Both the position numbers and the translations under genes were made by a program. A stretch of DNA of 64,000 bases, taken from a virus. The stretch lies in IMG/VR virus record IMGVR_UViG_3300048904_000313, positions 9,468 to 73,467 of that record; one strand, 5' to 3'. The notes beneath the pieces are model-generated. The model did no database searches. It was not told the DNA's origin and saw nothing but the letters and a program-made list of their open reading frames with translations. Below are positions 8,976-31,327 of the stretch, piece after piece (position 1 is the stretch's first letter; every line of letters starts with the position of its first letter).

Positions 8976-9523
8976 GCAGTGACGACCGGGAGGGTGGGGA
9001 GCGCACCGCGCTCCTCACCTTCCCGGGCTGTGACGGGGTGCCGTGGGAGGACAGTGGGGAGGGCGGCCAGTACGTGATGCTGGTCGTGCCTGAGCCCGAG
9101 GACCACGGCAACAACTGTCACGTGGACGTGTCCACGTACCTGCGGCTCCCTCGGCCGGCGAACCGCGTCACCACGGAGCTGACGTACCCCGACGTCTGTC
9201 ACACTCGGAACGATCTCTGGAGCCGCGACGGCTACCTGGACGGTTTCCGCGAGAGTGGCGACGTCTACAAGCACTTCAGCGACGCCGGTGACACGCGTCT
9301 CGCCGCCTGGGCGCTGCGCGCTCGCTCGGAGGGGGAGTTCAGCAAGCCGGTGCTGGCTGCCATCCTCCTTGGCAGTGACAGCCAGTCCAGGTGGTCCGAG
9401 CAGCACAGCGCGTACTGGACCGCCACGCACGCCGACCTGACGTTCCGTGGCCGGCTTCTCTACGACACGCTGAGGAGCTTCCACCAGACGGAGCCGCTTC
9501 TCCTGACCTTCCTGGACACCTGA
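8972..9523 (+). CDS. Hypothetical protein
   Basis: ORF track; GTGA-coupled. Confidence 0.7.
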   Translation: MSSDDREGGERTALLTFPGCDGVPWEDSGEGGQYVMLVVPEPEDHGNNCHVDVSTYLRLPRPANRVTTELTYPDVCHTRNDLWSRDGYLDGFRESGDVYKHFSDAGDTRLAAWALRARSEGEFSKPVLAAILLGSDSQSRWSEQHSAYWTATHADLTFRGRLLYDTLRSFHQTEPLLLTFLDT

Positions 9524-15028: not shown

Positions 15029-15994
15029 ATGGCACTCATTCTGCTTGAGGGTGTCGACGGCGGTGGCAAGTCCACGCTGGCCGACCGTATCGAGGAGACG
15101 TTCAAGTTCCTCACCGAGGACGACCCCAACCCGCCCCAGGTCGTCCGGATTCACAAGGGCAAGCCCACCCCCAACCTGGACGCGTTCCAGGAGTACGAGC
15201 TTCCCCTGGAGCGGTTCGACCTCCGCGACCTGATCCACTCAGCGCGAGACCTCGTCATCATGGACCGCTGGCACGCTGGCGAGATCCCCTACGGCACGAT
15301 CTACCGTGGCTCCAGCCGCCTGGACCAGGCCGGCCTCCTGCACGTGGAGCTCGTCCTCAGCGCGGTGGGCGCGGTGAAGGTGCTCGCTCAACCCGACGAG
15401 GTGGACCTCGTCAAGTTCCGTCTCAAGGCGCGGGGCGAGGACTTCCTGCAGCCTGAGCACGTGGACCGTGTCTGGCAGTGGTACGAGTCCCTGAAGAAGC
15501 TGTACGGCTACGTCCGCGCCAGTGACACCGCCCCGTCTGAGCTGATCCAGCTCGCCAGGGAGCGAGCCCTGGACTCTCATCGCACGGTGCCGCAGTCCTG
15601 GCCAGGGTACGTGGGCAGTCAGTTCCCGCGTCTTCTCCTGGTGGGAGACCAGCGGAACGACGGCCCCCGCGCTCGCCATGAGTTCGTCCGCGCCTTCACG
15701 CCGTGTCTCGGTGGCAGCTCCGCGGTCTACCTCCTCAACACGCTCAACCTGGCGGACATCCGTCGCGAGGTGGGCATCGTCAACGCTCACGAGCCGGGTG
15801 TGGATCTCACGCTGATCGACAAGATCGAGCCGCGGCCGGCCGTCGTGGCGCTTGGTCGCCTCGCGTCGAAGACGCTGACCGACGCCGGCGTGGAGCACGA
15901 GGCAGTGCCGCATCCTCAGTGGACGCGTCGCTTCCGCAACCAGAAGATGGGCTGGTATGCCCAGGAGATCAAGGAGGCCGCCGGATGGAAGTGA
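15029..15994 (+). CDS. dNMP (thymidylate-type) kinase fused to a uracil-DNA glycosylase-like domain
   Basis: N-terminal ILLEGVDGGGKSTLA and IMDRWH.GE..YG..YRG; C-terminal LLLVGDQRN, VVALGRLA, VPHPQW..RF. Confidence 0.75.
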   Translation: MALILLEGVDGGGKSTLADRIEETFKFLTEDDPNPPQVVRIHKGKPTPNLDAFQEYELPLERFDLRDLIHSARDLVIMDRWHAGEIPYGTIYRGSSRLDQAGLLHVELVLSAVGAVKVLAQPDEVDLVKFRLKARGEDFLQPEHVDRVWQWYESLKKLYGYVRASDTAPSELIQLARERALDSHRTVPQSWPGYVGSQFPRLLLVGDQRNDGPRARHEFVRAFTPCLGGSSAVYLLNTLNLADIRREVGIVNAHEPGVDLTLIDKIEPRPAVVALGRLASKTLTDAGVEHEAVPHPQWTRRFRNQKMGWYAQEIKEAAGWK

Positions 15995-16920
15995 TCGCCA
16001 AGACCGGCTCTGAGGCGTACGTGGAGCTGATGCAGGCTGTCCTCAACGAGGGTGAGCCGACGTCTCCACGTGGCCAGCTGACGTTTGAGCTGCTGAACGT
16101 CACCGTCCAGGTGGAGGACCTCGAGGAGGCGCACGTCCTCAACACGGCGAGGAAAGTCAACACCAAGATCCTCGCCACCGAGTACATGCACCTGCTCGGC
16201 GGCCTGAGCTCCCTTGAGCAGCTCGACCTCGCGTCCGGTGGGCGGTTCTCCCAGTTCGCGAACGGCGGCCGTCTCCTGGGCGCCTACGGCCCTCGAATCA
16301 GGCGTCAGCTGCCCAGGGTCGTTGAGCTTCTGAGCCGCGACCCCGACACCCGGCAGGCGGTCCTCTCCATCTGGACCGGCCGGGAGCACGAGGTCGACTC
16401 CAGGGACGTGCCCTGCACCCTGACCGTGCAGTTCCTCCTTCGCGACAACCAGCTTCACGTCCGCGTCTCCATGCGCTCTAATGATGTGGTGCTCGGCATT
16501 CCCTACGACTGGTGGATGTTCAGCCGGCTAGGCATGTCGGTGGCGTCGGCCCTGGGCGTGGAGACCGGCTCGTACACGCACACCGTTGGCTCCATGCACC
16601 TGTACGACCGCGACCTCGGCATCGCCAACGACGTGGAAGACATCGGCTTCCTCGCCAAGCCTCGCCTGGCGGTTCCCCCGGCTCTCACCTACGTCGGTGA
16701 CCGGGAGGACAAGGTCTTCCGAATGATCAAGCTGATGCAGGTGGCGGAGGACATCTGTCTCGACGACCCGTCGCACTGGGGCGCCGACTACCTCGGCATG
16801 GACTGGTACCACGGTCACGTGCCGCGGATCACCGACGTCAAGCAGTGTGTCAGCTGCCACTGCGTGGTCAAGACCGCTGAGATGTCGGAGCACCCACAGT
16901 TCTGCAAGGCCTGCAACTGA
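15985..16920 (+). CDS. Thymidylate-synthase-fold enzyme, dCMP hydroxymethylase-like (T4 gp42-like)
   Basis: DVPCTLTVQFLLRD...MRSNDVVLGIPYDWW; Asp (16507-16509) at the position that is Asn in dUMP-specific ThyA; HTVGSMHLY. Confidence 0.8.
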   Translation: MEVIAKTGSEAYVELMQAVLNEGEPTSPRGQLTFELLNVTVQVEDLEEAHVLNTARKVNTKILATEYMHLLGGLSSLEQLDLASGGRFSQFANGGRLLGAYGPRIRRQLPRVVELLSRDPDTRQAVLSIWTGREHEVDSRDVPCTLTVQFLLRDNQLHVRVSMRSNDVVLGIPYDWWMFSRLGMSVASALGVETGSYTHTVGSMHLYDRDLGIANDVEDIGFLAKPRLAVPPALTYVGDREDKVFRMIKLMQVAEDICLDDPSHWGADYLGMDWYHGHVPRITDVKQCVSCHCVVKTAEMSEHPQFCKACN

Positions 16921-22988: not shown

Positions 22989-23714
22989 TTGACCGACCTC
23001 GGGATGTCCCTGCTCGTGCATGGACCCTCCAAATCTGGCAAGTCCACCCTGGGTGACACCACCCCCGGACCGCGTCTCGTTCTCGACGCGGAGATGGGTT
23101 CCAGGTTCACCCCGTCGAAGAAGGTCGTCTGGGACCCCACCCAGTACGCGCCACCGGAGCCCAGCGAAGACTGGGACACCGCGATCGTCTACGTCCGCGA
23201 CTACAAGTCCGTGGCACGGGCCTACGAGTGGCTGAACAGCGGCAAGCACCCGTTCAACTCCGTGGTCCTGGACTCCATCTCGGAGATCCAGCAGCGTGCC
23301 ATCGACGCTCTCGTCGGCGCGGACATCATGAAGACCCAAGACTGGGGTACGATCCTCAGGCAGATCTCGGACCTCGTCCGCAAGTTCCGAGACCTGACCA
23401 CCAACCCCATCAAGCCTCTCGACGCGGTCGTCCTCATCGCGATGACCAAGCAGCGAGACGATGGCAGCTGGTATCCGTACGTCCAGGGCTCCCTGGCTAC
23501 GGTGCTGCCGTACCACGTCGACGTCTGTGCCTACCTCCAGAACGTGACCCTGGAGGACGGGATCTCCACCGCTCGTCGCCTGTTCGTCGGCCCGATCAAT
23601 GGGTACGTGACGGGTGAGCGAGTGGCGGGACGCCTCGGCACCTACCTCGACAACGCGAACGTCACGGACATGCTTGGCATGGTACGTGGCGATCTCGAGC
23701 CCAACAGCAACTGA
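22989..23714 (+). CDS. Phage AAA-domain nucleotide-binding protein (AAA_24/Sak4-like)
   Basis: HGPSKSGKST Walker A; VVLDSISE. Confidence 0.8.
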   Translation: MTDLGMSLLVHGPSKSGKSTLGDTTPGPRLVLDAEMGSRFTPSKKVVWDPTQYAPPEPSEDWDTAIVYVRDYKSVARAYEWLNSGKHPFNSVVLDSISEIQQRAIDALVGADIMKTQDWGTILRQISDLVRKFRDLTTNPIKPLDAVVLIAMTKQRDDGSWYPYVQGSLATVLPYHVDVCAYLQNVTLEDGISTARRLFVGPINGYVTGERVAGRLGTYLDNANVTDMLGMVRGDLEPNSN

Positions 23715-23734
23715 GAACGGAGCGGATTCGACAC

Positions 23735-24412
23735 ATGGCCAGCTTCTCTTGGAATGACCTTCAGCAGGCTGCTGACGACGCCGGGTTCGGCGTCATCCCC
23801 GCCGGTGACTACGAGTGCTCGGTGAAGACCGCGGAGCACAAGAAGACGGGCACCGGCAAGGACAAGATCGCCGTTCGCTTCGTCGTCACCACCGGCCCGT
23901 CTGAGGGCAAGGCGGTCTTCAACGACTTCGTGATCAGCCCGGACAACGGCACCGCGCTCGGGTTCTTCTTCCGCCACATGAAGGCGCTGGGTCTCGGCCC
24001 GGACTACTTCGCCTCCAACCCCGACCTCGGCAAGGTCGCGGGTGACCTGGTCGGCCGCAGCTGTGTGGTCACCGTCGGCATCCGTCAGTGGAACGAGGAG
24101 GACCGCAACGAGGTCAAGGGCATCAAGGCCTCGGCTGGCGCGGCCGCTCCCATGACGGCAGCCAGCGCGGGCCCACAGCCGATGGCGGCTCAGCCGGCCA
24201 CCCGGCCGCAGCCGATGGCTCACCCGCAGCCCACCGCTCAGCCTCAGCCGACTGCCCAGCCGCAGCCGGTCTCCACGGAGAAGAAGGCGAAGAAGGAGGA
24301 GCCGAAGGACGAGGCGCCTGAGGCTCCCACCGCGGAGCCGCAGGACGCTCCGCCGGCGGCGGAGGCAGAGGCCGCCACCGACGCACCGGCGAAGCCCAAG
24401 CTGCCGTTCTGA
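23735..24412 (+). CDS. DUF669-like single-stranded DNA-binding protein
   Basis: FGVIPAGDYEC.V..AE.K.T.TGK..I...F.V; Pro/Gln/Ala-rich tail ending in LPF. Confidence 0.75.
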   Translation: MASFSWNDLQQAADDAGFGVIPAGDYECSVKTAEHKKTGTGKDKIAVRFVVTTGPSEGKAVFNDFVISPDNGTALGFFFRHMKALGLGPDYFASNPDLGKVAGDLVGRSCVVTVGIRQWNEEDRNEVKGIKASAGAAAPMTAASAGPQPMAAQPATRPQPMAHPQPTAQPQPTAQPQPVSTEKKAKKEEPKDEAPEAPTAEPQDAPPAAEAEAATDAPAKPKLPF

Positions 24413-25158
24413 TGGACGAGGCTCAGCCGATCCGACGCGGCGCTGCCAGGGAGGAGCGCCGCTTCGATCAGACGCAGCTCCGCGCCACGAAGTACGGGGA
24501 GCGGGTTCACCGCGACTATGCCGCTCACTTCTTCAAGTGGGGGTTCGCCACCAGGCACATCGGTCCCGAGGACCGCGTCCTGGAGGTCGGCTGTGGCAGT
24601 GAGCTTCCCCTCGTCAACGTGTTGCGGATGGGTGGCAGGTACAACCCCGCCAGCTACGTGGGTGCTGACCTCAACAAGGTCAGCGTCTACCGGCCGGAGT
24701 GGGCGACGATCCACGATCACTTCAACTTCGTGGACCGGTACCTGGAGCTCGCCACTGAGGACGCGTACACCGTGGGCGTGTGCATCGAGGCCATCGAGCA
24801 CATGAACGCGGAGGACGGCCTCAAGCTGCTGGAGGGGTTCCGCACCCTCCTGACGGACGACGGCAAGCTCATCCTCTCCACGCCCGTGTTCAACGGGCGG
24901 GCGGCGAAGAACCACATCCACGAGTACACGATCCCCGAGCTTCAGGCGGCGATCGAGCACACGGGCTGGCAGGTCGAGGCGCGCTACGGCACCTTCGCCT
25001 CGTACCGGGACATCGTCAAGGTGGCGACACCAGAGCACCGCCAGGTATTGGACGGCATCCGCCAGCTGTACAGCGAGGAGGTCACGGCCTGCTTCCTCGC
25101 CCCGCTGTACCCCGACCACAGTCGGAACAACGTCTGGGTCCTAACACCCAGGGGTTGA
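24412..25158 (+). CDS. Class I SAM-dependent methyltransferase
   Basis: RVLEVGCG, YVGADL, CIEAIEHM, LILSTP. Confidence 0.85.
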   Translation: MDEAQPIRRGAAREERRFDQTQLRATKYGERVHRDYAAHFFKWGFATRHIGPEDRVLEVGCGSELPLVNVLRMGGRYNPASYVGADLNKVSVYRPEWATIHDHFNFVDRYLELATEDAYTVGVCIEAIEHMNAEDGLKLLEGFRTLLTDDGKLILSTPVFNGRAAKNHIHEYTIPELQAAIEHTGWQVEARYGTFASYRDIVKVATPEHRQVLDGIRQLYSEEVTACFLAPLYPDHSRNNVWVLTPRG

Positions 25159-25183
25159 CAGGGTGTCGCCACCGTGCTAGAGT
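25155..25183 (+). promoter_or_regulatory. Strong sigma70/HrdB promoter
   Basis: TTGACA-N17-TAGAGT, upstream of the dCTPase-GT-Glf-Dcm operon. Confidence 0.8.
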
Positions 25184-25245
25184 CTGAGCCGGTGGCGACG
25201 CCCTCACTGGAAGAGAAGCGTGAAGCGACCAAGAGGAGACCTGTA

Positions 25246-25722
25246 GTGGAGTTCAACCAGTGGATCGCCGAGCAGCGCGCGTATCAGCGCGAGACGTTCG
25301 GCGTCGACTACACCCTGATGGCCAACGACGTGGACGCCCTCACGGCCTACGTCACGATGAACCTGAACGCGGCCTTCCTCGAGCTGGCGGAGACCCAGCA
25401 GGAGGTGCCGTGGAAGCCGTGGGCCGAGACGGAGGACCGCGCCAAGGTGTGGTCGACCGGCCGTGACAAGGTCGTCGGTGAGATCGTGGACGTGCTGATG
25501 TTCGTCGGCAACGTCCTCACCGCGGTCGACTGCTCCGACTCGGAGCTGGCCACCCGCTACGAGGCGAAGATGGCGGTCAACCGCCAGCGCCAGGCGGCGG
25601 GCTACGACAACACCAACAAGTGCGACGGCTGTGGCCGGGCGTTCGACGACCACGGCGTCAAGCTCGCCGGCGTGATGAACGGCAAGCCGCACTGCGAGAA
25701 GTGCTGGGAGGCGTTCGCGTGA
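25246..25722 (+). CDS. All-alpha dimeric dUTPase/dCTPase (T4 gp56-like) with C-terminal Zn ribbon
   Basis: ELAE...VPWKPW, GEIVDVLMFVGN, Y..K...N..RQ..GY; CDGC...CEKC; GTG at 25246 after AGGAGA. Confidence 0.8.
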   Translation: MEFNQWIAEQRAYQRETFGVDYTLMANDVDALTAYVTMNLNAAFLELAETQQEVPWKPWAETEDRAKVWSTGRDKVVGEIVDVLMFVGNVLTAVDCSDSELATRYEAKMAVNRQRQAAGYDNTNKCDGCGRAFDDHGVKLAGVMNGKPHCEKCWEAFA

Positions 25723-26738
25723 AGCTCCTCATGACGGGTACCACGAAGCAGCAGGTCGGGGGCGGCACCGCCCTCGGCTACGAGCCGGTGGCCGACCTCT
25801 TCGCTAAGGGCCTTCGCCTGGCCGGCCACGAGGTCGAGCACCGCAAGACCACCATCGGCGAGGACCTCGCCCCCTACGACGCGGTGCTGGTCGGTCTCGT
25901 GCCGTTCTTCTCCATCGCGTCCAACCAGCTCTACCACGCGCTCGACGTCATCGAGCGCGCGGAGAAGAGCGGTCACCCGCTGCTCTTCTTCGTGGACGAC
26001 TGGGCGTTCCCCCGCCTGGTGGCCAACCTCAACACTCACATCCGTCACCCCTGGCAGCTGACGAAGGAGTTCTTCAGCGGCAGGGCCAGCTACGACTGGG
26101 CGTGCTCCCGCAAGGAAGAGCTCCAGGTTCTCGTGGAGCGGATGCGCTATCAGCCGTGGGCACCCACCATCGTGCCGGCGTTCACCTGGGGTGACCATCA
26201 CAAGCTGACGGGGGAGGTGGAGATGATGACGCAGCCTCACTACGTCGACGTCTCCTCTCTCGCCATGGAGTACCCGCTCACCTTCCCGCCAGAGCGGGAG
26301 CGACGCTGGGTGCTCGGCACGATCAGCGACCAGCGGAAGTGGATGGACTCCCTCGGCCTCGGCTGGGAGGTCAATCACCTCGGGACGCGGGCCTCAAAGG
26401 CCCCCGAGAAGATGCCTGAGAGCCAGCTCGTGCAGCTCTACGCGGAGTCCTGGGGAGTTCTCAGCCCGCCGTACAAGCGGATCCTCGGGACAGGCTGGTG
26501 GCGCAACCGCGCCGTCTACGCCGCGAGGGCCGGCGCGATCCTGCTCAGCGACCCCGGTGAGATGCCGCAGCTGGGTGAGGCGTACCAGCTCAAGCCCGCC
26601 GAGGTCGAGGCCATGACGGACACCGAGCTCTGCAGCCTGGCGGCGGCACAGCGGCAGGCTCTCTTCAGCTGTCAGCCGTCCACCGGCCAGGTAGCGGCTC
26701 AGCTCGACGCGATCGTGCAGGGAGTGGTCAACAAGTGA
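25719..26738 (+). CDS. GT-B glycosyltransferase, DNA beta-glucosyltransferase-like
   Basis: Segments align by eye to T4 BGT: DLAPYDAVLV~DVNDYDRLIV, LLFFVDD~IYYLFTD, KMPESQLVQLYAES~KIPMNMVSEKNSQA, RNRAVYAARAGAILLSD~TLRVWETMASDAVMLID; similar length. Confidence 0.65.
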   Translation: MKLLMTGTTKQQVGGGTALGYEPVADLFAKGLRLAGHEVEHRKTTIGEDLAPYDAVLVGLVPFFSIASNQLYHALDVIERAEKSGHPLLFFVDDWAFPRLVANLNTHIRHPWQLTKEFFSGRASYDWACSRKEELQVLVERMRYQPWAPTIVPAFTWGDHHKLTGEVEMMTQPHYVDVSSLAMEYPLTFPPERERRWVLGTISDQRKWMDSLGLGWEVNHLGTRASKAPEKMPESQLVQLYAESWGVLSPPYKRILGTGWWRNRAVYAARAGAILLSDPGEMPQLGEAYQLKPAEVEAMTDTELCSLAAAQRQALFSCQPSTGQVAAQLDAIVQGVVNK

Positions 26739-27817
26739 AGTGCGTGGTGGTTGGCGCCGGCTTGGCCGGCGCCACCGCCGCTCGCAAGGTGAGCCTTCAC
26801 CCCGACTGGGAGGTCGAGGTCTACGAGGCAGCACCTGAGGTGGGCGGCAACCTGAGAGCCAGCTCCATTGCTGGCGTCCTGTACGAGCCCTTCGGGCCAC
26901 ACATCTTCCACACCAACAACCTCGTTGCCTGGGACTGGATCACCAGCTACGCCAAGCTGGTGCCGTATCAGCACACGGTCAAGAGTCAACTGGCCAACGG
27001 CCGCATCCTCTCCTGGCCTCCCCAGGTGGAGGAGCTGAAGACGCTGCCGGAGTGGTCGAGGATCGCCGCGGAGCTCGACGCGCGGCCGGCTTCTCCCTCC
27101 GCGGCGAACTTCGAGAGCTACGCCATCGAGGTCATGGGCGCCACGCTCTACGCCTGGTTCTGCGAGGAGTACACGCGCAAGCAGTGGGGGACCGACCCTC
27201 ACCTGCTGAGCTCCAGGTTCGCACCGAAGCGGATCGACCTTCGCACGGACGGCGATCGGCGACTCTTCCGCGATCAGGACCAGGGTTGGGTGGCGGGTGG
27301 CTTCCAGAACCTCGTCCACGCGCTGCTGCACAACATCCCGGTCCACACTGGACGAGAGCTCACTCTCTCCACGCTGCCGGCGGCGGACGCCTACGTCATT
27401 ACCGCGCCCCTGGACGACTTCCTCGGTGAGGAGCCCCTTCCCTGGCGCGGCGTCCGCAGTGAGGCCACCTACTACCCCGACCGCGTGGGTCGTTCGCTCC
27501 CCGCACCGGTGCTCAACCGGCCGGGCGCGGAGGTCCCGTGGACTCGGGAGGTGGAGACCAGGCAGATGGCGGGCCAGGACACACTGGGCACCGTCATCGT
27601 GAGGGAGTACCCTGGGGCCAGCACCAGGTACTACCCGGTGGACGACGTCGACGGGGAGAACCGTGCCCGGTGGCGGGCGCTGCGAGACGAGCTCAAGATC
27701 CACCTGCCCAACGCCCACCTGGCCGGTCGCCTGGCCAACTACGTCTACATCGACATGGACCAGGCCATCGTCCAGGCTCTCAACGCCGCAGGACGGATCA
27801 CGAGGGGAACAGAGTGA
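26735..27817 (+). CDS. glf: UDP-galactopyranose mutase homologue
   Basis: FAD motif VVGAGLAG, GGN, GPHIFHT, YTRKQWG, REYP, YYP, GRLANY.YIDMDQAI. Confidence 0.9.
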   Translation: MKCVVVGAGLAGATAARKVSLHPDWEVEVYEAAPEVGGNLRASSIAGVLYEPFGPHIFHTNNLVAWDWITSYAKLVPYQHTVKSQLANGRILSWPPQVEELKTLPEWSRIAAELDARPASPSAANFESYAIEVMGATLYAWFCEEYTRKQWGTDPHLLSSRFAPKRIDLRTDGDRRLFRDQDQGWVAGGFQNLVHALLHNIPVHTGRELTLSTLPAADAYVITAPLDDFLGEEPLPWRGVRSEATYYPDRVGRSLPAPVLNRPGAEVPWTREVETRQMAGQDTLGTVIVREYPGASTRYYPVDDVDGENRARWRALRDELKIHLPNAHLAGRLANYVYIDMDQAIVQALNAAGRITRGTE

Positions 27818-29076
27818 CCTACACGTTCATCGACAACCAGGGCTTCGCCGGCGGCTTCGCCTGTGGCGCCACCCAGGCGGGCTTCCACCTGGTCGGCAAG
27901 CTGGAGAAGCCGGGTGGCTTCGGCGTCCCGCTGATGGAGGCCAACCGCGTCTTCCTCGGCGACGACTGGGAGGCACAGGTCGGCGATCCCAGCAGCTGGA
28001 AGGCCGTCAAGGCCGACGTCATCGTTGCCACGCCACCCTGCAGCGGCTTCTCCTCCATGACAGCCGGCATCGCTGGCATGCACGGCATCGACGCGCCGAT
28101 CAACCAGTGCATGAAGGACCTGATCGGCTACGCCATCAAGGTCAAGCCCACGGTCGTCTGCATGGAGTCGGTCGGCCAGGCGTACACCAAGGGTCTCGAC
28201 CTGATGCGGCGGCTGCGTCAGACGCTCAGCGACGAGACGGGGCTCACGTATCACGCCACGCACGTGATGCAGAACAACCTCTCCACGGGTGGCTGCACCA
28301 ACCGCCGGCGGTACTTCCTCGTGTTGAGCCAGGTGCCCTTCGGCGTGGAACGCTACGACCTGAAGCGAGTCGCCACCGTGGGTGACGCGCTCGAGGACCT
28401 GCGCAACCTCGACATCACCTGGGACCCTCAGGCGTACGAGGACGAGCCGACCTGGTGGTCCGCGGAGCGTCGCTCCAAGACCGGCATGGTGGACGGCCAC
28501 ATGGACCCGCCCGACGGCCCGTACAAGCGTCGCATCTACGACATGGCGCAGAGCCCCGACGCCGTGGAGTGGAAGGCGGGCGAGGGCGACACGGACATGC
28601 TCCGTCGCTGGTACGAGACGCACGGCTCGCTCCCCGACTCCTGGGACTACGTCTCCGCTGGCAAGGAGAAGAGCCGTACTGAACAGATGGTGGAGCGCGG
28701 CTTCAAGATGGGCGGCTTCTCCAAGCCGAAGCACTGGCCGTGGGACGTCCCAGGCCGCGTGATCAACGGCTCCGGCCCGATCCAGGTGTGGCACCCCGAC
28801 GGCCGCTTCTCCACGCACCGGGAGATCGCTCGCCTGATGGGCTTCCCCGACGACTGGGTGGTCGGCACTGCGAAGGACACCCGCGCCCTCACCTCCTACT
28901 GGGGCAAGGGCACGTCCGTCTCGCCGGCGAAGTGGCTGATGGACTGGGTGCGCAACAGCCTGGACGGCAACCCTGGTTCCTACGTAGGCGAGGAACTGGC
29001 GGCAGGTGACCGCTTCATCACGGTCGCCCCGGACTGGAAGCCGGTCTGGGAGGCACAGACCGCCACGGCAGCCTGA
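27814..29076 (+). CDS. Divergent DNA cytosine-C5 methyltransferase (Dcm-like)
   Basis: Motif I-like QGFAGGF, motif IV PPCSGFS, motif VI variant MESV, motif VIII RRRYF, motif IX-X THREIARLMGFPDDW...GKG. Confidence 0.75.
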   Translation: MTYTFIDNQGFAGGFACGATQAGFHLVGKLEKPGGFGVPLMEANRVFLGDDWEAQVGDPSSWKAVKADVIVATPPCSGFSSMTAGIAGMHGIDAPINQCMKDLIGYAIKVKPTVVCMESVGQAYTKGLDLMRRLRQTLSDETGLTYHATHVMQNNLSTGGCTNRRRYFLVLSQVPFGVERYDLKRVATVGDALEDLRNLDITWDPQAYEDEPTWWSAERRSKTGMVDGHMDPPDGPYKRRIYDMAQSPDAVEWKAGEGDTDMLRRWYETHGSLPDSWDYVSAGKEKSRTEQMVERGFKMGGFSKPKHWPWDVPGRVINGSGPIQVWHPDGRFSTHREIARLMGFPDDWVVGTAKDTRALTSYWGKGTSVSPAKWLMDWVRNSLDGNPGSYVGEELAAGDRFITVAPDWKPVWEAQTATAA

Positions 29077-29084
29077 CCTGCCAC

Positions 29085-29123
29085 GTCCAACCCCTTCCAA
29101 ACTCGTTGAGGAAGGGGTTGGAC
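29085..29123 (+). terminator. Intrinsic terminator hairpin
   Basis: Perfect 14-bp inverted repeat GTCCAACCCCTTCC / GGAAGGGGTTGGAC. Confidence 0.75.
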
Positions 29124-29148
29124 AACTCCCTGACCTGTGCTGTAGGTT
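29119..29148 (+). promoter_or_regulatory. Promoter for tRNA-Pro
   Basis: TGGACA-N18-TAGGTT. Confidence 0.6.
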
Positions 29149-29182
29149 GTTCTCAGCAGCACAGCACGGAACGAAGCGACAA

Positions 29183-29256
29183 CGGGACGTAGTTCAACTT
29201 GGTAGAGCACCTGGTTTGGGACCAGGATGTTGGGGGTTCAAATCCCTCCGTCCCGA
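29183..29256 (+). tRNA. tRNA-Pro(TGG)
   Basis: Acceptor CGGGACG/CGTCCCG, anticodon arm CCTGG-TTTGGGA-CCAGG, T-loop GGTTCAAATCC; no encoded CCA. Confidence 0.95.
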
Positions 29257-29363
29257 CGTGAGGACTGGGCACGGGTAGAGCGTAAGACATGCGCGCTTAC
29301 GGCTCCAGGGTAGAAACCCCGTGGCATCTGACAACTGCTTAGCAAGGAAGGGAAGGGAAGCGA

Positions 29364-29759
29364 GTGAGCAAGAACACGACCAACGCCGGCAGCGTCGGCA
29401 AGGCGATCGGCGCTGGCGTCCTCGGTCTCGCGGTCTTCGGCGGCGTCATCTTCGGCGGCTGGGAGGCGGGTTGGTGGTTCACCAACCAGAACGCGAACCG
29501 TGAGGGTCACGTCATCCGCAACAGCTACTCCAACCAGCAGACGCTGCGGGACCAGATCACCAAGGGCCTCGGTGACGTGACGGACATGGACCGTCAGATC
29601 ACTCAGGCGAAGGGCGACAACGCCACCGCGCTGACTGCCCAGCGGCACGCCATCGCCAACCAGGTCTGCCAGGAGGCAGTGCAGGTAAGCGGTGATCCGC
29701 TGCCGTCCGATCAGGCCGACTGGGTGTCCCAGAACTGCGTCATGGGGAGCGCGAAGTGA
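29364..29759 (+). CDS. Membrane-anchored protein
   Basis: N-terminal hydrophobic helix; helical periplasmic-type C-terminus with two Cys. Confidence 0.7.
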   Translation: MSKNTTNAGSVGKAIGAGVLGLAVFGGVIFGGWEAGWWFTNQNANREGHVIRNSYSNQQTLRDQITKGLGDVTDMDRQITQAKGDNATALTAQRHAIANQVCQEAVQVSGDPLPSDQADWVSQNCVMGSAK

Positions 29760-30845: not shown

Positions 30846-30922
30846 AGCGGGATGGCGCAGTTCGGTAGCGCGTGGGGCTCATAACCCTGAGGCCGTGGGT
30901 TCAAATCCCACTCCCGCCACCA
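30846..30922 (+). tRNA. tRNA-Met(CAT), initiator-like
   Basis: Anticodon arm with GGG/CCC, CTCATAA loop, 1:72 mismatch (A/C), TTCAAAT T-loop, CCA end. Confidence 0.9.
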
Positions 30923-30923
30923 A

Positions 30924-30999
30924 TGACTTGTAGCTCAATCGGCAGAGCATCGCACTGTTAATGCGGGTGTTGCAGGTTCGAGTCCTGCCAGGTCAGCCA
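30924..30999 (+). tRNA. tRNA-Asn(GTT)
   Basis: TGACTTG/CAGGTCA acceptor, CGCA-CTGTTAA-TGCG, GGTTCGAGTCC, CCA. Confidence 0.95.
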
Positions 31000-31000
31000 T

Positions 31001-31076
31001 GCGTCTGTAGCTCAGCGGCCAGAGCAGCCGTCTCCAAAGCGGCTAGTCCCAGGTTCGAGTCCTGGCAGGCGTGCCA
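31001..31076 (+). tRNA. tRNA-Trp(CCA)
   Basis: GCGTCTG/CAGGCGT acceptor, GCCGT-CTCCAAA-GCGGC, GGTTCGAGTCC, CCA. Confidence 0.95.
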
Positions 31077-31077
31077 T

Positions 31078-31149
31078 TCCCCGTTGGTGTAATTGGCAAC
31101 ACACCACGCTCTGGACGTGGCATTCGAGGTTCGAATCCTCGGTGGGGAG
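31078..31149 (+). tRNA. tRNA-Gln(CTG)
   Basis: TCCCCGT/GTGGGGA acceptor, CCACG-CTCTGGA-CGTGG, GGTTCGAATCC; no encoded CCA. Confidence 0.9.
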
Positions 31150-31327
31150 CTCGCAAGTAACGGGCGGAGTAAGGAAGCCCAGGGCCACGAGAGTCAGATG
31201 GGAATCCTTTTCCTTAGTCCACGCCCGTGGAGGTCCCGGCAGTCGCTTGTGGTGAGGGTCTCGTCCCGCCACGTCTCTTAGCCGGAGGCCAGCGAGACGA
31301 GACCTCTCAACTCTCGCGACGAGGGTG

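Follow-up and report, generated by a model that had tools for sequence, protein, structure and literature searches.

What does an enzyme built to act on position 5 of cytosine do in a phage whose cytosines appear to be occupied there already? The question is raised by one gene in a 64,000-nucleotide stretch (positions 9,468 to 73,467) of the IMG/VR virus record IMGVR_UViG_3300048904_000313; we refer to this whole stretch, 64 kb of a 107.5-kb record, as the window. Its G+C content is 65%, and its relatives are actinophages. The product of the gene at 27814-29076, called here the C5 enzyme, is by its motifs and predicted fold a member of a lysine-type, virus-only clade of the DNA cytosine-C5 methyltransferase superfamily, and this family probably performs DNA chemistry beyond ordinary methylation. 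Our leading interpretation, held tentatively and at somewhat less than even confidence, is that the C5 enzyme is active, that it would work after replication on the phage's own DNA in connection with a 5-hydroxymethylcytosine (hmC) pathway, and that its chemistry would be something other than the plain transfer of a methyl group.

A rebuilt pocket in a conserved catalytic frame

The gene and the motifs on which the argument turns are as follows.

27814-29076, plus strand: gene for the lysine-type enzyme with a C5-cytosine-methyltransferase fold (P0001), 420 amino acids, assigned from PF00145, the AlphaFold (AF2) model and VIA
27838-27858, plus strand: motif I variant QGFAGGF, residues 9-15, within IDNQGFAGGF, where the canonical motif is FxGxGG(L/F)
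28033-28044, plus strand: motif IV PPCS, residues 74-77, with the catalytic Cys76 and with Ser instead of the Gln of PCQ
28165-28173, plus strand: motif VI ESV, residues 118-120, with Glu kept and Asn replaced by Ser
28303-28311, plus strand: motif VIII R-x-R, the cytosine-binding arginines Arg164 and Arg166
28903-28908, plus strand: motif X Gly364-Lys365, with Lys at the position of HhaI Asn304 and CmoX Arg350

The C5 enzyme matches Pfam PF00145 at 57.4 bits (E 2e-15, cut-off 22), and it fails the NCBIfam dcm family (TIGR00675) with 24 bits against a cut-off of 100.65. A phmmer search of the PDB found no match for it, so that a family profile was needed; the profile reaches HaeIII (E 7e-26), DNMT1, HhaI and the carboxymethyltransferase CmoX (8yf3, E 3e-13). 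The AF2 model, built from 40 relatives, has a predicted local distance difference test (pLDDT) score of 95.9 and the two-domain fold of the PF00145 superfamily. Its VIA Z scores are 29.8 with DNMT1, 29.7 with 3g7u (the CP-933R prophage methylase), 28.4 with HaeIII, 24.0 with CmoX 8yf3 and 21 with Dnmt2; over DNMT1, 3g7u, HaeIII and HhaI together, Z lies between 26 and 30 with a root-mean-square deviation of about 3 Å across 285-360 residues. The target-recognition region matches DNA enzymes of the DNMT1/MET1 type by profile (53.8 bits).

Within this fold the Pro-Cys nucleophile (TPPC, residues 73-76), the motif VI glutamate (MESV, residues 117-120) and the motif VIII R-x-R of the superfamily are all present, but the canonical pocket of FxGxGG, PCQ, ENV and GN(A/S)V is not, and the C5 enzyme reads QGFAGGF, PCS, ESV and GKGTSV in its place. 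Motif X in full is W-G-K-G-T-S-V, with Lys365 replacing the conserved Asn. Two alignments agree on this residue: the profile-to-PDB alignment lays GK over the GN of HaeIII, and MAFFT with SpCmoX, taken from the genome of Synechococcus phage S-B43, lays Lys365 over Arg350, which the authors of the CmoX study equate with HhaI Asn304 (PMC12783734). The treatment of motif I depends on the method; the profile alignment to HaeIII pairs Gln9 with the conserved Phe and Phe11 with the first Gly, and MAFFT shortens the loop instead.

These features belong to a whole clade. Searched exhaustively with phmmer, a set of 1.84 billion cluster representatives yielded 158 relatives at E < 1e-30, which puts the family at 158 or more clusters at 50% identity, and conservation was counted over 238 full-length database relatives (30-86% identity) and, separately, over 96 open reading frames (ORFs) from IMG/VR contigs. 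Among the former, Cys76 is kept in 234, Glu118 in 236, Arg164 in 234 and Arg166 in 237. Glu31, the motif II ribose-binding acid, is retained by 83% of members and Asn44 by almost every one, a pattern which indicates that selection acts on the catalytic apparatus and on the adenosine side of the cofactor pocket. By the same comparison, the residues predicted to face the transferable group or the C5 substituent differ systematically from the canonical ones: Ser replaces Gln in motif IV and Asn in motif VI, Lys replaces Asn in motif X, and the glycine loop of motif I is altered. Residue 77 is Ser, Ala or Thr in 230 of the 238 and never Gln; Ser119 is present in 231, with Asn never seen; and residue 365 is Lys in 231, Arg in three and Asn in none. 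For motif I the counts are 218 (Phe or Leu) and 226 (Gly13). All 96 IMG/VR ORFs have Cys76, Ser77, Glu118, Arg164, Arg166 and Lys365, and at residue 119 they have Ser (88) or Cys (the remaining eight).

The initial annotation, made from the letters of the window, had described a divergent Dcm-like enzyme with an intact PC motif and with deviations in motif I (read as IDNQGFAGGF) and motif VI (ESV). All three readings of the motifs are borne out, and the enzyme is rightly called divergent because it fails the dcm cut-off and has no phmmer match in the PDB. What that annotation overlooked was the PCS of motif IV and, above all, the Asn-to-Lys change in motif X, the most informative residue of the enzyme.

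The clade is essentially viral. Isolates that carry relatives, at 33-36% identity, are the Gordonia phages GMA2, Forza, Sixama, GodonK and Phendrix, the Micrococcus phage Kurnik and the Actinomycetia phage DSL-LC01, and a scan of 185,579 prokaryotic species genomes (one for each species), which is sensitive to close relatives only, found a single relative, on a 17.5-kb contig of a metagenome-assembled genome (MAG). One database relative of 752 amino acids (P0246) has a Hint/LAGLIDADG intein directly after the catalytic PPC.

An enzyme that appears to presuppose hydroxymethyl-dCMP

The setting in which the clade occurs is the second part of the argument, and it begins with a gene some distance upstream.

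15985-16920, plus strand: thymidylate-synthase (TS) homologue with the signature of a hydroxymethyl-dCMP synthase (PF00303, 91 bits)

An Asp at the position of E. coli ThyA N177, together with an acidic residue at L143 and a retained Asp169, is the signature of T4-type 5-hydroxymethyl-dCMP synthases (Lee et al. 2026, PMC13326640). The TS homologue of the window (sequence DVPC...RSNDVVLGIPYD) has Asp/Asp/Asp at ThyA L143, D169 and N177 and is thus predicted to be a dCMP-using hydroxymethylase of the T4 type. The 5-hydroxy-dCMP synthases have Asn at position 169 (PMC13326640), and an RB69-type 5-hydroxy-dCMP reading was rejected because Asp169 is retained here. The window also encodes a dNMP-kinase fusion, a dCMP deaminase and an NTPase of the dUTPase_2 type, which complete a T4-like set. 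The statement in the initial annotation that the phage pre-occupies C5 therefore holds as far as sequence can carry it. As a separate observation, the C-terminus of the TS homologue (16830-16920) is a short Cys-rich tail, CxxC ... CxxC, that resembles an appended zinc ribbon and is missing from the relatives aligned with it.

The same signature accompanies the C5 enzyme wherever TS genes were compared: in the window, in the isolates and in 30 of 30 further family genomes. An Asp-type TS homologue is present in all four isolates examined (GMA2, Forza, Kurnik and DSL-LC01). Among further IMG/VR records with a C5 enzyme and a length of 41 kb or more, 31 of 33 have a TS homologue, and where completeness is 90% or more the figure is 21 of 21; the Asp/Asp/Asp signature was found in each of the 30 TS genes examined among these further carriers. 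The converse fails, since a TS-like gene is found in 650 phage records and a C5 enzyme in 15. The C5 enzyme is obligately associated with hydroxymethyl-dCMP synthases and, to judge from this one-sided pattern, is an accessory to the hydroxymethyl-dCMP pathway and depends on its presence. In the first set of contigs, one sizeable record (L012/G001, IMG/VR 3300006852_000005; 82.7 kb, 80% complete) has a C5 enzyme and no detectable TS homologue; the TS gene may lie in the missing 20%, or the record may be a real exception.

Candidate partner methyltransferases, fusions and kinases

If the C5 enzyme elaborates hmC, other enzymes might be expected to handle its product, and one candidate lies in the window itself.

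24412-25158, plus strand: gene with a class I S-adenosylmethionine (SAM)-methyltransferase fold (Methyltransf_23; PF13489, E 6e-10), the inferred partner

The product of this gene gave an AF2 model with a pLDDT of 91.4, and a fold search with it led to generic small-molecule O-methyltransferases and to CmoM, not to CmoA; its NCBIfam match is a weak one to UbiG, and phmmer against the PDB found only MitM (E 0.007), matches that say little about its role. Relatives of the C5 enzyme are often longer than the 420 residues seen here, 47 of 263 (about 18%) having 520 amino acids or more. At least 20 of them have a C-terminal FkbM-like class I methyltransferase domain, and three others (P0168, P0181 and P0200) have a Methyltransf_23 domain fused to the C5 enzyme. 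Over its full length the 24412-25158 product is 46% identical to the C-terminal domains of P0168 (E 5e-70) and P0200 (E 7e-65), the two that were compared, and because a homologous domain is fused in these proteins we consider the separate gene and the C5 enzyme to be functionally linked. The link to an upstream SAM methyltransferase suggested by the initial annotation is thus upheld. No homology was found between this methyltransferase and the FkbM-type fused domains of P0047 and P0051, so the fused class I methyltransferase domains are of two unrelated kinds. A class I methyltransferase of the window's type is missing from most of the 94 family loci.

Kinases provide a second link. In one relative (P0259) the C5 enzyme is fused to a 5-hydroxymethyldeoxyuridine (5-hmdU) DNA kinase domain (PF18723, E 5e-40); a search for this fusion in IMG/VR did not find it. 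At L104:6488-11227 (IMG/VR 3300036773_000046; a 79-kb genome, 98% complete, with an Asp-type TS homologue), an operon runs from a UDP-glucose dehydrogenase through an NAD-dependent epimerase/dehydratase, a 5-hmdU DNA kinase (HMUDK)-like kinase (81 bits) and a MazG/PRA-PH NTPase to the C5 enzyme. This arrangement points to a cytosine hypermodification that would depend on a kinase and draw on a sugar-acid donor. A further contig, L025, also has an HMUDK-like gene. All fusion proteins retain the Cys and the Lys. Glycosyltransferases and HMUDK-type kinases modify 5-hydroxymethylpyrimidines in DNA at their hydroxyl, a site that O-methyltransferases could use as well.

The operon and its conserved neighbour

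In the window, the C5 enzyme closes a run of four genes that lies between a promoter-like site and a hairpin.

25155-25183, plus strand: promoter-like site TTGACA-17-TAGAGT with an extended TG, a consensus match only
25174-25722, plus strand: dUTPase_2 / all-alpha NTP pyrophosphatase gene of the dCTPase/dUTPase type (PF08761, E 1e-5; phrog_18650, E 6e-21)
25620-26738, plus strand: glycosyltransferase-like gene, with no Pfam match and 42% identity to a DSL-LC01 'glycosyltransferase'
26735-27817, plus strand: UDP-galactopyranose mutase homologue (Glf; PF03275, 85 bits; TIGR00031, 136 bits, below cut-off)
29085-29123, plus strand: perfect 14-bp hairpin, a likely terminator without a U tract, 9 nt past the stop of the C5 enzyme

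The C5-enzyme ORF runs from a GTG at 27814 to a stop at 29076, encoding 420 residues, and a Shine-Dalgarno-like run (GGGGA) lies 5 nt 5' of the GTG. We take this GTG, and not that of the longer ORF from 27538, as the right start because homologues begin at the same residues (VTYTF, MTYSF). It overlaps the TGA stop of the Glf gene (26735-27817), as the initial annotation had seen in the sequence GTGA. The promoter-like site is the only one within 23600-29400 (5.8 kb), where shuffled sequences lead one to expect 0.4, and it heads the run of NTPase, glycosyltransferase, Glf and C5 enzyme. The hairpin folds with a free energy of -28.1 kcal/mol (z -4.8), a stability reached by 0 of 200 shuffles. 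Together these signals enclose the four genes, and we predict that in this phage the C5 enzyme is co-transcribed with the nucleotide pyrophosphatase, the glycosyltransferase-like gene and Glf. The NTPase and glycosyltransferase-like ORFs share about 100 nt and the -10 box extends to 25183, so that both genes probably start later than their longest ORFs do; the NTPase transcript may be leaderless. Directly past the hairpin lies a tRNA-Pro(TGG) gene (29183-29257), followed 1.6 kb beyond by closely packed genes for tRNA-Met, Asn, Trp and Gln (30846-31150), and tRNA arrays also adjoin the same module in GMA2 and Forza.

Which of these neighbours matters to the family is a separate question. The conserved neighbour of the C5 enzyme is the nucleotide pyrophosphatase gene, not the pair of glycosyltransferase and Glf. 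An NTPase of the dUTPase_2/MazG type lies directly 5' of the C5 enzyme in 84 of 94 distinct IMG/VR loci (median offset about -550 bp). In 13 of the 94 a glycosyltransferase like that of the window is close to it, and in none a Glf; of all the relatives examined, the isolate DSL-LC01 is the only one with a Glf, to which that of the window is 50% identical. The coupling to the glycosyltransferase-Glf pair on which the initial annotation had built is therefore local to this phage and a few relatives. At L025:9010-9813 (IMG/VR 3300041809_000972) the position of the NTPase, directly 5' of the C5 enzyme, is taken by a gene of the trimeric dUTPase/DCD (dCTP-deaminase) fold, a non-homologous replacement that keeps the pairing of NTPase and C5 enzyme. 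On the 3' side of the C5 enzyme, L025 has genes for a metallophosphoesterase, a sugar-nucleotide epimerase, a second Methyltransf_23 protein and a DNA ligase. In DSL-LC01 (L004:9775-12419), on the opposite strand and just 3' of the module, stand genes annotated as a second glycosyltransferase and a flavin-dependent 'tryptophan halogenase', the latter unusual in a phage.

Weighing the possible chemistries

How might such an enzyme work? The C5 enzyme would attack C6 of a flipped-out cytosine-type base, most likely hmC or an activated form of it, and the group that it handles at C5 would be larger or more polar than a methyl, with Lys365 in contact with this substituent; the class I methyltransferase, encoded at 24412-25158 here and fused to the C5 enzyme in other phages, would then act on the product. 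A more specific scheme for the lysine-type clade is possible, and we put it forward with considerable doubt: the clade would be a novel type of DNA-modifying enzyme and would use covalent attack on C6 of hmC in DNA, free or activated by a kinase, in order to exchange or elaborate the hydroxymethyl group, and the fused or neighbouring class I methyltransferase would finish the base. The hydroxyl, or a phosphate, might be displaced through an exocyclic methylene intermediate, or the hydroxymethyl might be swapped for another group; such a scheme would do for cytosine what the hypermodification pathways of thymidine do for that base. C5 methyltransferases are said to remove or substitute the hydroxymethyl group of 5hmC in vitro, in work by Liutkeviciute, Klimasauskas and colleagues.

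At the same time, a simpler account has to be considered, one that we regard as rather unlikely and yet as the main competitor, to be taken seriously. The C5 enzyme could be an ordinary SAM-dependent methyltransferase that makes 5-methylcytosine (5mC) as a second layer behind the dCTPase, which would prevent dCTP from entering the DNA, methylating a leftover or sequence-specific subset of cytosines so that no bare cytosine is left for host or phage nucleases. The residues for attack on C6 and for cytosine binding are all kept, as are most of those that bind adenosine, and a dCTPase/dUTPase-type gene stands directly 5' in 84 of 94 loci; the dUTPase/DCD-fold substitute in L025 likewise fits a gene pair that handles unmodified cytosine, and the account explains why the enzyme occurs only in phages with a TS homologue. 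An engineered enzyme with the same lysine, M.MedI N377K, still methylates to more than 99% with SAM (PMC12015181). Against this, equivalents of Gln82, Asn120 and Asn304 occur in 0 of 238 members, and in HhaI changes at Gln82 and Asn304 lower methyl transfer (PMC3526304). A methyl product would moreover give the fused class I methyltransferases and the linked hydroxymethyl kinases no target, and neither the rebuilt pocket nor the fusions would be explained.

The lysine suggests another possibility, that the clade is a DNA cytosine C5-carboxymethyltransferase, a lysine-type analogue of CmoX that uses carboxy-SAM or another extended, charged or polar SAM derivative, supplied by an unrecognised synthase, or SAM itself, bound for the transfer of a different arm. 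Lys365 aligns with CmoX Arg350, PCS in motif IV is common to both, and an Asn-to-Lys change converts M.MpeI and M.MedI into carboxymethyltransferases (PMC12015181). The published census of CmoX required Arg forms, and because it kept those only, the Lys clade lies outside it and would have been missed. The residue at the Asn304/Arg350 position is basic, a Lys where Arg is used to define CmoX, and Lys works there in the engineered enzymes. We nonetheless consider the idea improbable. A search for CmoA (TIGR00740) found none in the genome of the phage itself, even at E values as high as 10, and none in a further 12 genomes of the family; its positive control, the CmoA beside CmoX in phage S-B43, scored 115 bits. 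Of 201 sampled genomes from the phylum of a Coriobacteriia MAG (G019), taken as the host phylum, three have CmoA-like matches at E <= 1e-20, none of them above the cut-off, and one of the three (G020), on which this count partly rests, is unpublished; CmoA-like matches are rare in this sample. The known carboxy-SAM route is unlikely because CmoA was missing from all 13 family genomes with a control that worked, and because the partner class I methyltransferase resembles CmoA neither in sequence nor in fold and is itself missing from most loci; a donor of an unrecognised kind is conceivable. A carboxymethyltransferase of this kind also requires an unsubstituted C5. Among the alternatives that the initial annotation had listed, non-canonical chemistry is the better supported, and the different alkyl donor, in its carboxy-SAM form, loses ground.

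It is very improbable, in our judgement, that the enzyme does not modify the phage genome at all and instead serves as a tRNA or RNA m5C methyltransferase for the adjacent phage tRNAs, modifies the DNA of the host, or flips bases for the glycosyltransferase without catalysis of its own, the last of these having been raised in the initial annotation. The tRNA-Pro gene just 3' (29183-29257) and the tRNAs near the gene in GMA2 and Forza fit a role on RNA, but the target-recognition region is of the DNMT1/MET1 type (53.8 bits; Z about 30), with a Z of 21 for Dnmt2; Cys, Glu and Arg are strictly conserved, which speaks for catalysis; and most loci lack the glycosyltransferase that the enzyme would serve. 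A route through TET/JBP oxidation was likewise rejected, with no match to PF12851 at E <= 1 in the phage's own genome or in four isolates.

Several considerations weigh against the interpretation that we favour, that of an active enzyme with unusual chemistry tied to hmC. All characterised enzymes of the superfamily, to our knowledge, transfer an alkyl group to an unsubstituted C5, and the prior favours that. Links to kinases are few, three in all, and one of them, the P0259 fusion, is a singleton on a 5.6-kb Logan contig and could be an assembly artefact. Most carriers have a common, syntenic replication module (PolA, SNF2, exonuclease, Sak4 and SSB), and because of this synteny the co-occurrence with TS homologues partly reflects shared ancestry. 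Replacement of cytosine in the carrier phages may be incomplete. The geometry of the pocket near Lys365 is read from alignments, and the lysine by itself is compatible with methylation because M.MedI N377K keeps more than 99% methylation with SAM (PMC12015181). Finally, no modified base has been reported for the cultured carriers (GMA2, Forza and its relatives, Kurnik and DSL-LC01), and a literature search on DNA modification in GMA2, Kurnik and DSL-LC01 returned nothing relevant.

Cytosine-C5 methyltransferases are among the best-understood DNA enzymes, and here is a large branch that keeps their catalytic machinery, has rebuilt the residues facing the C5 substituent, and occurs only where C5 is predicted to be hydroxymethylated already. 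If it does act on hmC, it would open a post-replicative route to hypermodified cytosines and provide a natural enzyme for site-specific chemistry on 5hmC, of use for epigenome-sequencing tools. If it is a plain back-up methylase, it would point to a two-layer strategy against bare cytosine. The clade may also explain restriction resistance in many actinophages. Cultured carriers, which include the Gordonia phages GMA2, Forza, GodonK and their relatives and the Micrococcus phage Kurnik, make the question directly testable.

Comparison with known enzymes and pathways

The closest natural precedent for a changed pocket is CmoX, which is, as far as we know, the sole natural departure from methyl transfer among cytosine-C5 methyltransferases (2025). 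In CmoX, Arg350 contacts the carboxylate and selects the carboxylated donor (PMC12783734). SpCmoX of Synechococcus phage S-B43 (PDB 8YF3; Yang et al. 2025, PMC12783734) is, like the C5 enzyme, phage-encoded with a C5-methyltransferase fold (Z 24.0); both have PCS as motif IV and a basic residue where HhaI has Asn304, and SpCmoX takes a first step towards DNA hypermodification, which we count as a further likeness. The two differ in that SpCmoX has Arg, ENV and FxGxGG, whereas the C5-enzyme family has Lys, ESV and an altered motif I, and in their company: SpCmoX travels with CmoA, which is adjacent in S-B43, whereas in the genomes searched the C5-enzyme family is found without CmoA and with a hydroxymethyl-dCMP synthase instead. 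Nor is the family special kin of SpCmoX in sequence, its profile reaching 8yf3 at E 3e-13 and HaeIII at 7e-26.

With the canonical enzymes M.HaeIII, M.HhaI and DNMT1/MET1 (PF00145), the C5 enzyme has in common the fold, the PC motif, the motif VI Glu, R-x-R, motif IX and a DNMT1-like target-recognition region. Where those enzymes have Gln82, Asn120 and Asn304, however, the family has Ser, Ser and Lys with an altered motif I loop, and unlike them it falls below the NCBIfam dcm cut-off, is virus-only and is tied to hmC synthesis. In M.HhaI, Gln82 and Asn304 adjoin the transferable group, and their replacement lowers methyl transfer and admits larger groups (PMC3526304); M.MpeI N374K and M.MedI N377K become carboxymethyltransferases that use carboxy-SAM (PMC12015181). 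As a group, these two mutants and M.HhaI Q82A/Y254S/N304A are changed at the same two pocket positions as the C5 enzyme, the Gln of motif IV and the Asn of motif X, the Asn-to-Lys change being identical. They are laboratory mutants that work on synthetic or E. coli-derived cofactors, whereas the C5-enzyme clade is natural and conserved and has no evident source of such a cofactor.

The setting has its own precedents. In phage clusters that combine a C5 methyltransferase, a 5mYOX/TET enzyme and a glycosyltransferase (Burke et al. 2021, PMC8256090; Pyle et al., bioRxiv 10.1101/2023.12.21.572611), a C5-family gene stands near genes for DNA glycosyltransferases that serve the hypermodification of cytosine, a likeness to the present cluster. 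These clusters differ from the present system, where the phage's own genome and four isolates are without a TET/JBP match and hmC is predicted to arise before replication; because the TS homologue is predicted to make it at that stage, a methylase is not needed to start the pathway. The described T4-type hmC and HMUDK pathways (Lee et al. 2018, PMC5889632; 2021, PMC8989533) have no enzyme of the C5-methyltransferase fold, unlike the carriers of the C5 enzyme. They are otherwise alike in setting, with a TS of the dCMP-hydroxymethylase type, a dCTPase-type NTPase and a dNMP kinase, and glycosyltransferases or, in some relatives, an HMUDK-like kinase are common to these pathways and to the phages that carry the C5 enzyme.

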